From the NCBI RefSeq assembly GCF_055900595.2, contig NZ_CM148325.1: a stretch of 64,000 nt of DNA. One strand, written 5' to 3'. The notes under the pieces are model-generated. The model was given only the letters and a program-made list of their open reading frames with translations. It was not told the origin of the DNA and searched no databases. Positions within the stretch are counted from its first letter, which is position 1; each line of letters begins with the position of its first letter. Of this stretch, positions 18,685-21,283 are shown piece after piece. The position numbers were made by a program, and so were the translations under genes.

Positions 18685-19044
18685 AAAGTCCTGTCCAGAA
18701 AGAAGTCGGCCTCGCAAAAATGAATAAACCCAGTTTCTCTTGCGCAACAGGTGGAGAAGTCGAATACGCAGTATGTAAAAAATGAGGCAATAGATTCACT
18801 GGGGAGGTCGCGAGGAGGCGCAATTCTACAAAATTGCGCATTTCACTACCAGTCTGGAGTCAGCCCGGATATGAACTGCAACTATTGCAAATAAAGAAAT
18901 TAAGCTGGAAGGTATCACGCAATGAGGAAGGTTGCCGGGTGCTGACGGTAAAAAGCAATCGTAAAATCAGCGGCAAGCCGGAAAGGTTCCGGTGAGGCGC
19001 AATGTTGCGGGGGCTTAATCCCTGGTGGCATTGGTTGCTGGAGA

Positions 19045-19112
19045 GAGAAAACCCCCGCACGTTGCAGATATTCACCTGACAACATCACGGGGGCTAATCT
19101 TGAACCTAGACC
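19045..19112 (-). ncRNA. rdlD: candidate Rdl antisense RNA, module 1 (approximate ends)
   Basis: minus-strand hairpin CGGGGG...CCCCCG (19052-19093) followed by T-run; upstream on minus strand a candidate promoter TTGTAA-17-TATTCT; about 65 nt, antisense to the ldr leader. Confidence 0.45.
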
Positions 19113-19159
19113 ACTCAAGAATAGCCGCGAAACGTTGTCATTACAACACAGGCGGCTAT

Positions 19160-19267
19160 ATGACGCTCGCAGAACTGGGCATGGCCTTCTGGCATGATTT
19201 AGCGGCTCCGGTCATCGCTGGCATTCTTGCCAGCATGATCGTGAACTGGCTGAATAAGCGGAAGTAA
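19160..19267 (+). CDS. ldrD: LdrD-type type I toxin peptide, module 1 (35 aa)
   Basis: MTLAELGMAFWHDLAAPVIAGILASMIVNWLNKRK; single TM helix with basic C-terminus; recognised as Ldr family. Confidence 0.85.
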   Translation: MTLAELGMAFWHDLAAPVIAGILASMIVNWLNKRK

Positions 19268-19317
19268 CGTGTCAGACGGGCGTCAGGCTGCCGTAATGGC
19301 AATTTGCGCCCGGACCA

Positions 19318-19349
19318 GGCCGCAGGGATAAAACTCTGCGGCCTTTTTC
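19318..19349 (+). terminator. intrinsic terminator of ldr mRNA, module 1 (equivalents at about 19801, 20285, 20768)
   Basis: GGCCGCAGGGATAAAACTCTGCGGCC hairpin followed by TTTTT. Confidence 0.75.
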
Positions 19350-19527
19350 GTAAGAAAAATGCAACGGTTGCAAGCGGATAATATTCTGCGGAATGCGCAG
19401 CACAGAGTGAAGAAGTGACGGATTCCGGAACAGAAAAACAGTCGTAGAATCAGCGGCAAGCCGGAAGGGTTCCGGTGAGGCGCAATGTTGCGGGGGCTTT
19501 ATCCCTGGTGGCATTGGGTGCTGGAGA

Positions 19528-19595
19528 GAGAAAACCCCCGCACGTTGCAGGTATGCACCTGACAACACCACGGGGGCCATTCTTGCATCCAAACA
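19528..19595 (-). ncRNA. rdlD: candidate Rdl antisense RNA, module 2 (approximate ends)
   Basis: same architecture as module 1 shifted +483 bp; hairpin arms at 19535-19540 and 19571-19576; candidate -10 (plus-strand AGAATA) at 19601-19606. Confidence 0.45.
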
Positions 19596-19642
19596 ATACA
19601 AGAATAGCCGCGAAACGTTGTCATTACAACACAGGCGGCTAT

Positions 19643-19750
19643 ATGACGCTCGCAGAACTGGGCATGGCCTTCTGGCATGATTTAGCGGCTCCGGTCATTG
19701 CTGGCATTCTTGCCAGTCTGATCGTGAACTGGCTGAATAAGCGGAAGTAA
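19643..19750 (+). CDS. ldrD: LdrD-type type I toxin peptide, module 2 (35 aa)
   Basis: MTLAELGMAFWHDLAAPVIAGILASLIVNWLNKRK (M26L relative to module 1). Confidence 0.85.
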   Translation: MTLAELGMAFWHDLAAPVIAGILASLIVNWLNKRK

Positions 19751-20011
19751 CGTGTCAGACGGGCGTCAGGCTGCCGTAATGGCAATTTGCGCCCGGACCA
19801 GGCTGCAGGGATAAAACTCTGCGGCCTTTTTCGTAAGAAAAATGCAACGGTTGCAAGCGGATAATATTCTGCGGAATGCGCAGCACAGAGTGAAGAAGTG
19901 ATGGATTTCGACGAGCAAAAATGGCCGTAGAATCAGCGGCAAGCCGGAAGGGTTCCGGTGAGGCGCAATGTTGCGGGGGGCTTTATCCCTGGTGGCATTG
20001 GTTGCTGGAGA

Positions 20012-20079
20012 GAGAAAACCCCCGCACGTTGCAGGTATGCACCTGGCAACACCACGGGGGCCATTCTTGCATCTAGACC
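20012..20079 (-). ncRNA. rdlD: candidate Rdl antisense RNA, module 3 (approximate ends)
   Basis: hairpin arms at 20019-20024 and 20055-20060; -10 complement at 20085-20090. Confidence 0.45.
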
Positions 20080-20126
20080 ATTCAAGAATAGCCGTGAAAC
20101 GTTGTCATTACAACAGAGGCGGCTAT

Positions 20127-20234
20127 ATGACGCTCGCAGAACTGGGCATGGCCTTCTGGCATGATTTAGCGGCTCCGGTCATCGCTGGCATTCTTGCCAG
20201 TCTGATCGTGAACTGGCTGAACAAGCGGAAGTAA
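20127..20234 (+). CDS. ldrD: LdrD-type type I toxin peptide, module 3 (35 aa)
   Basis: MTLAELGMAFWHDLAAPVIAGILASLIVNWLNKRK. Confidence 0.85.
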   Translation: MTLAELGMAFWHDLAAPVIAGILASLIVNWLNKRK

Positions 20235-20494
20235 CGTGTCAGACGGGCGTCAGGCTGCCGTAATGGCAATTTGCGCCCGGATCAGGCCGCAGGGATAAAA
20301 CTCTGCGGCCTTTTTCGTAAGAAAAATGCAACGGTTGCAAGCGGATAATATTCTGCGGAATGCGCAGCACAGAGTGAAGAAGTGACGGATTCCGGAACAG
20401 AAAAACAGTCGTAGAATCAGCGGCAAGCCGGAAGGGTTCCGGTGAGGCGCAATGTTGCGGGGGCTTTATCCCTGGTGGCATTGGTTGCTGGAGA

Positions 20495-20562
20495 GAGAAA
20501 ACCCCCGCATATTGCAGGTATGCACCTGACAACATCACGGGGGCCATTCTTGAACCTACACA
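20495..20562 (-). ncRNA. rdlD: candidate Rdl antisense RNA, module 4 (approximate ends)
   Basis: periodic equivalent of modules 1-3; the -10 complement here reads AGAGTA, a weaker match. Confidence 0.4.
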
Positions 20563-20609
20563 ACTCAAGAGTAGCCGCGAAACGTTGTCATTACAACACT
20601 GGCGGCTAT

Positions 20610-20717
20610 ATGACGCTCGCAGAGCTGGGCATGGCCTTCTGGCACGATTTAGCGGCTCCGGTCATTGCTGGCATTCTTGCCAGTCTGATCGTGAACTGGC
20701 TGAACAAGCGGAAGTAA
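20610..20717 (+). CDS. ldrD: LdrD-type type I toxin peptide, module 4 (35 aa)
   Basis: MTLAELGMAFWHDLAAPVIAGILASLIVNWLNKRK. Confidence 0.85.
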   Translation: MTLAELGMAFWHDLAAPVIAGILASLIVNWLNKRK

Positions 20718-20977
20718 CGTGTCGGACGAGCGTCAGGCTGCCGTAATGGCAATTTGCGCCCGGACCAGGCCGCAGGGATAAAACTCTGCGGCCTTTTTCG
20801 TAAGAAAAATGCAACGGTTGCAAGCGGATAATATTCTGCGGAATGCGCAGCACAGAGTGAAGAAGTGACGGATTCCGGAACAGAAAAACAGTCGTAGAAT
20901 CAGCGGCAAGCCGGAAGGGTTCCGGTGAGGCGCAATGTTGCGGGGGCTTAATCCCTGGTGGCATTGGTTGCTGGAGA

Positions 20978-21045
20978 GAGAAAACCCCCGCACGTTGCAG
21001 GTATGCACCTGACAACATCACGGGGGCTAATCTTGAACCCAAACA
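20978..21045 (-). ncRNA. rdlD: candidate Rdl antisense RNA, module 5 (approximate ends)
   Basis: periodic equivalent; position relative to the ldr ORF and bcsG matches the K-12 ldrD/rdlD arrangement as I recall it. Confidence 0.45.
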
Positions 21046-21092
21046 ACTCAAGAATAGCCGCGAAACGTTGTCACTACAACAGAGGCGGCTAT

Positions 21093-21200
21093 ATGACGCT
21101 CGCAGAACTGGGCATGTCCTTCTGGCATGATTTAGCGGCTCCGGTCATTGCTGGCATTCTTGCCAGTCTGATCGTGAACTCGCTGAATAAGCGGAAGTAA
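21093..21200 (+). CDS. ldrD: LdrD-type type I toxin peptide, module 5, variant (35 aa)
   Basis: MTLAELGMSFWHDLAAPVIAGILASLIVNSLNKRK; A9S and W30S relative to modules 2-4. Confidence 0.75.
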   Translation: MTLAELGMSFWHDLAAPVIAGILASLIVNSLNKRK

Positions 21201-21250
21201 CGTGTCATGCGGGCGTCAGGCTGCCGTAATGGCAATTTGCGCCCGGATCA

Positions 21251-21283
21251 GGCCGCAGGGGTGAAACTCTGCGGCCTTTTTCG
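21251..21283 (+). terminator. intrinsic terminator of ldr mRNA, module 5, abutting the bcsG stop
   Basis: GGCCGCAGGGGTGAAACTCTGCGGCC followed by TTTTT; the bcsG stop codon (minus strand) lies at 21287-21289. Confidence 0.75.

Follow-up and report, generated by a model that had tools for sequence, protein, structure and literature searches.

The DNA analysed here is a 64,000-nucleotide (nt) stretch of contig NZ_CM148325.1 (RefSeq assembly GCF_055900595.2), referred to below as the window. Its source is Escherichia coli, and it contains a five-copy tandem version of the known ldr/rdl type I toxin-antitoxin module of the LDR-D (long direct repeat D) type. In K-12, Ldr is toxic and the Rdl RNA represses Ldr synthesis (LdrD/RdlD; PMC4147584). 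The five modules differ most densely in a 13-nt block that crosses the 5' end of Rdl and coincides with the loop of a hairpin predicted in the ldr leader. With moderate confidence we read this block as the site where Rdl/ldr pairing nucleates; the few old haplotypes found there would give the modules graded and partial insulation from one another, and substitutions in the Rdl hairpin would be mostly neutral to its structure.

The array is identified as LDR by its Rfam matches, by the K-12 annotation, by the annotation of the Prokaryotic Genome Annotation Pipeline (PGAP) and by the flanking genes, which are those of K-12 LDR-D. The Rfam model RF01813 (rdlD; gathering score 50 bits) gave five full-length minus-strand matches of 79.7-90.4 bits, one per module and all covering model positions 1-66. 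They lie at 19046-19111 in module 1 (85.5 bits, with the 5' end at 19111), 19529-19594 in module 2 (81.7 bits), 20013-20078 in module 3 (80.4 bits), 20496-20561 in module 4 (79.7 bits) and 20979-21044 in module 5 (90.4 bits). Like the known family members, each is an RNA of about 66 nt encoded in cis on the opposite strand, antisense to the ldr 5' untranslated region (UTR), and each has its 5' end 48 nt upstream of the ATG of its own ldr. Both the Rfam consensus structure and minimum free energy folds show Rdl as a G/U-rich, single-stranded 5' tail of 16 nt that leads into a long terminator hairpin. The 5' end of rdlD in the RefSeq K-12 annotation aligns with window position 19111, and this alignment together with a conserved TTGTAA-17-TATTCT promoter suggests that transcription begins at the annotated 5' base.

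Variation between the five modules

The five modules share 385 columns alignable in all of them, of which 39 are variable. Rdl and the 5 nt upstream of its start hold 15 variable columns out of 71; the remaining 314 columns hold 24 (odds ratio 3.2, Fisher p=0.0015). Variable columns are most crowded at 19103-19115, a 13-nt window that contains 7 of them (permutation p=0.011). A first-pass annotation, made from the sequence of this DNA, had reported that differences between modules cluster in the Rdl region, and on these counts they do; the variant strings it quoted are also present where it placed them. Its description of the modules as almost identical except for two patches goes too far, in that the 24 variable columns outside the Rdl region make up about 60% of the total and include 8 in the ldr open reading frame (ORF), 3 of which change an amino acid.

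The hypervariable block, defined in module 1 by the densest variable window, by a consensus fold and by local folds (see below), lies on the plus strand at 19103-19115 and in the same register at 19586-19598, 20070-20082, 20553-20565 and 21036-21048 in modules 2 to 5. Most of its variable positions (Rdl nt 3, 4, 5, 7, 8 and 9) are inside the RNA. The earlier placement of the block at the Rdl 5' end is thus right for 19103-19111 and wrong for the variable positions 19112, 19114 and 19115, which are -1, -3 and -4 from the Rdl start and so outside the RNA. The Rdl positions that vary among the window modules are also those that distinguish the K-12 copies, and four of the window's five tail alleles are not present in K-12.

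The second patch fares similarly. Its position in the Rdl stem-loop stands, but the label of a hairpin-loop patch mostly does not: of its variable positions, the apical loop holds nt 40 alone, a bulge or internal loop accounts for nt 27 and 33, and the other four (nt 17, 44, 51 and 52) belong to the stem, where the changes in the window keep pairing. One apical loop is common to modules 2-5. The hairpin patch would add little discrimination within the window array, and its substitutions would be mostly structure-preserving polymorphism.

Predicted target loop and graded pairing

In the RNAalifold consensus of 42 distinct full-length ldr mRNAs, 19103-19115 is exactly the loop of a short leader hairpin in which UCUUG (19098-19102) pairs with CAAGA (19116-19120); the loop measures 13 nt in the consensus and 11 nt in module 1 itself. 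The hairpin can be folded in 37 of 37 distinct family members from Escherichia, Pseudocitrobacter and Kluyvera, whose local folds have stems of 6-9 bp and A/C-rich loops of 9-13 nt, at -3.8 to -7.2 kcal/mol. Positions 19103-19111, corresponding to the 5' two-thirds of the predicted loop, are complementary to Rdl nt 9-1, and from Rdl nt 10 onward the neighbouring part of the tail is complementary to the stem's 5' arm. Positions 19112-19115 lie upstream of the Rdl start; the block overruns the 5' end of Rdl by a few bases because it is the whole of the predicted loop. The leader hairpin is thus predicted to present the target nucleotides, and, by analogy with hok/sok, the Rdl 5' tail likely meets the A/C-rich loop as its first contact site. 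The surroundings of the block would be kept nearly constant by overlapping constraints, namely the Rdl hairpin, the rdl promoter and the fold of the ldr leader.

Constraint on the Rdl hairpin was assessed in an alignment of 37 distinct Rdl sequences from E. coli, E. albertii, E. whittamii, Escherichia sp. E1V33, Pseudocitrobacter and Kluyvera. Standard pairs are formed by 99.5% of the stem cells, and each change in a stem affects one side of a pair only and leaves the pairing intact (A-U to G·U, U·G to U-A, or G-C to G·U). On the ldr strand these wobbles would read as C·A mismatches, and therefore the structure that is preserved is that of Rdl. There are no two-sided changes in the hairpin among the 37 sequences, and hence no formal covariation. 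The underlying contig scan gave 15 loci, two of which were set aside: a chance match in Gemmatimonadota and a 503-bp contig labelled Bacillus. The latter (Bacillus sp. EB106-08-02-XG196, coverage 0.66) carries an E. coli-type Rdl identical to that of window module 5 and is probably E. coli contamination of that assembly.

On the Rdl strand, the block runs from -4 to +9 of the putative rdl promoter and so takes in its discriminator and the bases transcribed first. In module 1 this promoter would occupy 19118-19146 on the minus strand, with a -10 element TATTCT (19123-19118), a -35 element TTGTAA (19146-19141), a 17-nt spacer and a 6-nt discriminator that overlaps the block. Its elements can be read directly from the sequence and are conserved across genera; a sigma-70 consensus scan of 18750-19900 called no promoter, the rdl promoter having 8 of 12 consensus matches, and the rdl and ldr promoters used here are candidates read by eye. 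One alternative is that the block sets the rate of Rdl synthesis, the start site or the sensitivity to ppGpp/DksA of each module, and not the specificity of pairing. This would account for variation that crosses the 5' end of the RNA, and the variable positions -1, -3 and -4 do lie between a conserved -10 element and the +1 G, with discriminators that range from GAGTG to GTATT. We nevertheless find it quite improbable: most of the variable positions are inside the RNA, the upstream positions are tightly linked to them and could hitch-hike, and tail alleles shared across genera with differing upstream loop bases (see below) would be left unexplained.

Pairing between each Rdl and each leader was then predicted. 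The perfect match of each Rdl to its own leader, which the first-pass annotation stressed, is real but follows by construction for any cis-encoded antisense RNA. Non-cognate Rdl/ldr pairs have 3-9 non-Watson-Crick positions out of 66, with 2-5 of them in the 16-nt tail, and the contiguous Watson-Crick run within nt 1-9 is 9 in cognate and 2-6 in non-cognate pairs. The predicted tail duplex (nt 1-16) is worth -25.2 kcal/mol when cognate and -14.1 kcal/mol on average when not, over a range of -5.0 to -22.2 kcal/mol. Cognate tails are therefore predicted to pair better on average, but Rdl2 with ldr3 and Rdl5 with ldr1 come near to cognate strength. Thermodynamic discrimination by the full-length duplex was rejected, as all pairs are strongly favourable, and any discrimination must therefore be kinetic.

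All five tail/loop elements of the window are distinct. Tail nt 6-14 are common to modules 1, 4 and 5, and nt 6-32 are common to modules 2 and 3, so that the array would comprise two clear tail classes, one of modules 1, 4 and 5 and one of modules 2 and 3, with finer differences at nt 3-5, and not five orthogonal pairs. Recognition among co-resident modules would then be graded and only partly insulated. The module-specific recognition proposed earlier finds support to the extent that non-cognate tails carry those 2-5 non-Watson-Crick positions of 16, but the effect is graded, and other strains have neighbouring modules with identical Rdl. Taken together, the first-pass observation is real but overstated, and its interpretation is reasonable, has precedent and is partly supported, in a graded form only.

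Haplotypes across strains and genera

Variation at the population level was examined in 50 D-type modules from 15 E. coli genomes. This set mixes paralogues and orthologues from strains that are not a random choice, and the statistics drawn from it describe these modules and are no population sample, which limits what they can contribute to the nucleation reading. Diversity per site is 0.264 in the 13-nt block (Tajima's D +1.98), 0.029 in the rest of the module (D -0.54), 0.0475 at third codon positions of ldr (D +0.61) and 0.046 in the 3' UTR (D 0.01), so that the block is about 9 times as diverse as the rest of the module, 5.5 times as diverse as third codon positions and 5.8 times as diverse as the 3' UTR. 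Nine of its 13 sites segregate, with zero singletons. The 21-nt patch 19095-19115 occurs in only ten haplotypes, each seen at least twice, and arrays are assembled from these in differing combinations: the window reads A D C G B, SMS-3-5 reads A E E B F and Nissle reads A B. A four-gamete test over the 71 nt of Rdl and its upstream bases found all four gametes in 33 of 105 site pairs, some of them inside the block. This supports mosaic exchange, and the recombination between a few variant blocks that the first-pass annotation had suggested agrees with it and with the recurrent haplotypes. The variation in the block would accordingly be a small set of old haplotypes moved by recombination between modules and strains, as opposed to scattered new mutation.

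The same data bear on a neutral account of how the haplotypes persist. Dense mismatches might block gene conversion through heteroduplex rejection, or the TCTTGA/TCAAGA loop might be hypermutable in heavily transcribed DNA. A conserved inverted repeat of this sequence does flank the block, and the module backbones are uniformly about 2.7% divergent whatever their patch type, both as such an account would have it. The four-gamete violations inside the block argue that exchange is not blocked there; a mutational hot spot predicts many rare variants, whereas 0 of 9 segregating sites is a singleton; and the block contains both transitions and transversions, with no clear mutational signature. We regard neutral persistence of either kind as most improbable.

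A stronger competitor is relaxed constraint alone. Here the block would be the only stretch of the module free of any stem, promoter hexamer or selected coding frame, old paralogues would drift in it, and any Rdl would repress any ldr through the roughly 50 conserved nt. This is possible but somewhat unlikely. It fits the exact coincidence of the block with the predicted loop, whose part not complementary to Rdl is as variable as the complementary part, and it fits the stem changes, all of which are pair-preserving, as expected under purifying selection with neutral wobble changes. It also sits well with the tolerance of identical neighbouring copies and with the long perfect blocks that persist in all non-cognate pairs. 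What it does not predict is a block several times more diverse than third codon positions and 3' UTR of the same modules, the positive Tajima's D and the absence of singletons, or a small recurrent haplotype set in place of a spread of point variants. Nor does it predict that other segments of the leader predicted to be unpaired are invariant.

The comparison with other genera speaks to the same question. There the same positions are variable and the Rdl core is almost invariant. Pseudocitrobacter faecalis shares the exact tail of K-12 RdlD (GUCUAGAGUCAAGAUUAG) although its ldr ORF has only 65% nucleotide identity, the module 3 tail recurs in a Pseudocitrobacter metagenome-assembled genome (locus L022), and P. 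vendiensis is also among the Pseudocitrobacter loci that have E. coli-identical tail alleles beside ldr ORFs of about 65% identity. Free drift should have randomised these tails; with few variable sites involved, the sharing is suggestive, and it points either to a restricted repertoire of alleles or to very old alleles. A bolder version of the argument, which we think unlikely, is that the tail/loop haplotypes are ancient specificity classes spread across Escherichia, Pseudocitrobacter and Kluyvera, kept by selection against cross-neutralisation and shuffled by recombination. If that were so, LDR arrays would be a natural library of partly orthogonal antisense/target pairs, with each module individually 'addictive'.

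The array composition of E. coli strains shows how strict any insulation could be. Co-resident modules share identical patches less often than expected by shuffling (4 observed, 9.3 expected, p=0.023). Adjacent modules with identical Rdl are nevertheless found in 4 of 13 multi-copy arrays, those of SMS-3-5, EC42405, MFDS1022581 and GPEC1031, and K-12 RdlB and RdlC differ by one base; strict one-to-one specificity is therefore not required. The adjacent identical-Rdl modules in these four arrays also have near-identical backbones (distance 0.008), and these two features together point to recent unequal crossing-over as the way in which LDR arrays grow. The idea that backbones cluster by genome and patches by type was rejected, with backbone distances of 0.0267, 0.0265 and 0.0296 in the classes compared.

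Several of these results, and some others, weigh against reading the block as a nucleation site that insulates modules. The block positions -1, -3 and -4 are outside Rdl and cannot affect its pairing. The target hairpin has no covariation support among the 37 sequences, in which its stem is nearly invariant and the test uninformative. Rdl2 pairs with ldr3 through G·U wobbles only (tail -22.2 kcal/mol), as does the Rdl5 tail with ldr1 (-21.9 kcal/mol), and all full-length non-cognate duplexes are very favourable, at -48 to -86 kcal/mol. Identical Rdl neighbours in 4 of 13 arrays and the near-identity of K-12 RdlB and RdlC count on the same side. An ancestral array could simply have passed on the deficit of co-resident identical patches, and concerted evolution left no signal in the backbones, whose distance is 0.0267 for different patches in the same genome and 0.0265 for the same patch in different genomes. 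Finally, functional discrimination among the Rdls is something we infer: the searchable literature yielded no experiment on Rdl cross-repression or cross-specificity, the primary Kawano papers being outside that search.

If the tail/loop alleles do set recognition, Ldr/Rdl would be a third type I family, after Sib/Ibs and Zor/Orz, insulated by a few bases at the point where pairing starts. This would help to explain the side-by-side persistence of toxin modules that are nearly identical and number 1 to 5 or more, would provide a compact natural set of variants (about ten alleles of a 9-nt seed) for antisense target discrimination, and would mark the loop 19103-19115 as the Rdl entry site, giving a handle on the mechanism of Rdl repression. 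Should the alleles play no part in recognition, what remains is an ordinary copy-number variant of a known repeat.

Related systems and other features of the array

The closest relatives of the window modules are LDR-D and LDR-A/B/C of K-12 (Kawano et al. 2002, as cited in PMC4147584), which have the same 35-amino-acid (aa) toxin family, a 66-nt Rdl and the same promoter and terminator elements; LDR-D is also at the same locus, with one copy there in K-12 and five tandem copies in the window. In vivo capture of an RNase III-dependent RdlD/ldrD duplex is described for K-12 (PMC7373196), and a conversion between coordinate versions suggests that the duplex covers roughly Rdl nt 8-41. The element itself is thus already known, and what the window adds is probably a further example of a known principle.

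That principle is best seen in Sib/Ibs, where the variable regions contain target-recognition domains TRD1 and TRD2 whose swapping switches the target (Han et al. 2010, PMC2943612). Like Sib/Ibs, Ldr/Rdl is a multi-copy cis-antisense type I family of near-identical copies, with variation where pairing is thought to start; in Rdl the variation among copies is concentrated at nt 3-9 and in the predicted target loop, to which structure suggests an initiating role. The two differ in that Sib discrimination and the domain swaps are experimental, while Rdl discrimination is predicted and graded, and identical copies co-exist in some strains. Sib also overlaps a whole ORF, whereas Rdl overlaps the 5' UTR only. 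With these differences in mind, graded insulation of the kind seen by analogy in Sib/Ibs is our best reading of the Rdl block. A second parallel is ZorO/OrzO versus ZorP/OrzP, in which the V1 region at the 5' end of the small RNA sets target specificity (Wen et al. 2014, PMC3919570); there too a variable stretch at the 5' end of the antitoxin RNA tells tandem paralogues apart, but Orz is divergently encoded and pairs over about 18 nt, whereas Rdl is fully cis-encoded with 66 nt of complementarity.

The architecture of Ldr/Rdl is described in reviews as resembling hok/sok (PMC4147584, PMC8167048). As in hok/sok of plasmid R1, the Rdl antisense RNA has a single-stranded 5' tail and a terminator hairpin, its target is in a long 5' UTR at some distance from the start codon of the toxin, a putative leader frame runs across that start, and long-range pairing between the 5' and 3' parts of the mRNA is predicted. 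The toxin families (Ldr/Fst in the present case) are unrelated. Membership in the hok/sok family was rejected, since matches to the Rfam sok model reach 26-31 bits where its gathering score is 59. These sub-threshold matches are found on every ldr leader (plus strand, 19009-19162 in module 1 and the same register elsewhere) and are consistent with a hok-like leader organisation. A YUNR U-turn as a general feature of the target loop was likewise rejected, being present in modules 1 and 3 and absent from modules 2, 4 and 5.

Tandem Repeats Finder places the array at 18951-21284, with a period of 483 bp and 4.8 copies, in agreement with the repeat unit of about 0.5 kb known for the long direct repeat at the LDR-D locus. 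Its neighbours are yhjV (minus strand, ending at 18747) and bcsG (minus strand, 21287-22966), and the single ldrD/rdlD module of K-12 occupies the same yhjV/bcsG slot. Window positions 18700-21400 are 100% identical to several complete genomes, such as that of E. coli Z0117EC0005, and PGAP annotates five Ldr-family toxin coding sequences in the genomes identical to the window array. Across complete E. coli genomes the LDR-D copy number is 1 to 5 per locus.

The ldr ORFs, each of 35 aa and all on the plus strand, are at 19160-19267 (module 1, MTLAELGMAFWHDLAAPVIAGILASMIVNWLNKRK), 19643-19750 (module 2), 20127-20234 (module 3), 20610-20717 (module 4) and 21093-21200 (module 5, with the substitutions A9S and W30S). 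The predicted peptides have the Ldr/Fst signature, being hydrophobic, about 35 aa long and equipped with a transmembrane stretch, a conserved Trp and a charged C-terminus; module 5 is without the Trp. W30S in this bcsG-proximal copy removes the signature tryptophan of the Ldr/Fst superfamily, and the same allele is found in the last module of SMS-3-5, EC42405, MINF_9A and MFDS1022581. Because it recurs in the last module of four other arrays, the terminal ldr copy may be an attenuated toxin.

Two further reading frames run through the leader. Modules 1, 2, 4 and 5 have a 25-aa upstream ORF (uORF) with a GAGG Shine-Dalgarno sequence, which in module 1 is at 19002-19079 on the plus strand and overlaps Rdl nt 33-66 with its 3' end. 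Module 3 has a tract of six G residues where the others have five, and this places the uORF ATG in frame with ldr to give an 88-aa ORF (19968-20234) whose last part is the toxin. The tract has 5 G residues in 40 of the 50 modules, 6 in 9 and 4 in 1, and it may be a slippage-prone switch. The second frame, +2 relative to ldr, is stop-free between the predicted 5' end of the mRNA and a point 37 nt into ldr (18970-19196 in module 1 and the same register in modules 2-5), and the variable block freely alters its amino acids. No canonical start codon was identified for it in any of the five modules; it is probably the 'ldrX' of the literature.

The ldr mRNA of module 1 has a predicted intrinsic terminator at 19317-19351 (plus strand). 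In its predicted fold the 5' leader at 18996-19008 (GGCGCAAUGUUGC) pairs with the 3' UTR at about 19298-19310 (GGCAAUUUGCGCC), an arrangement that would resemble the fold-back inhibition of hok mRNA, and the model has AUAGCCGC (19121-19128) sequester the Shine-Dalgarno region of ldr.

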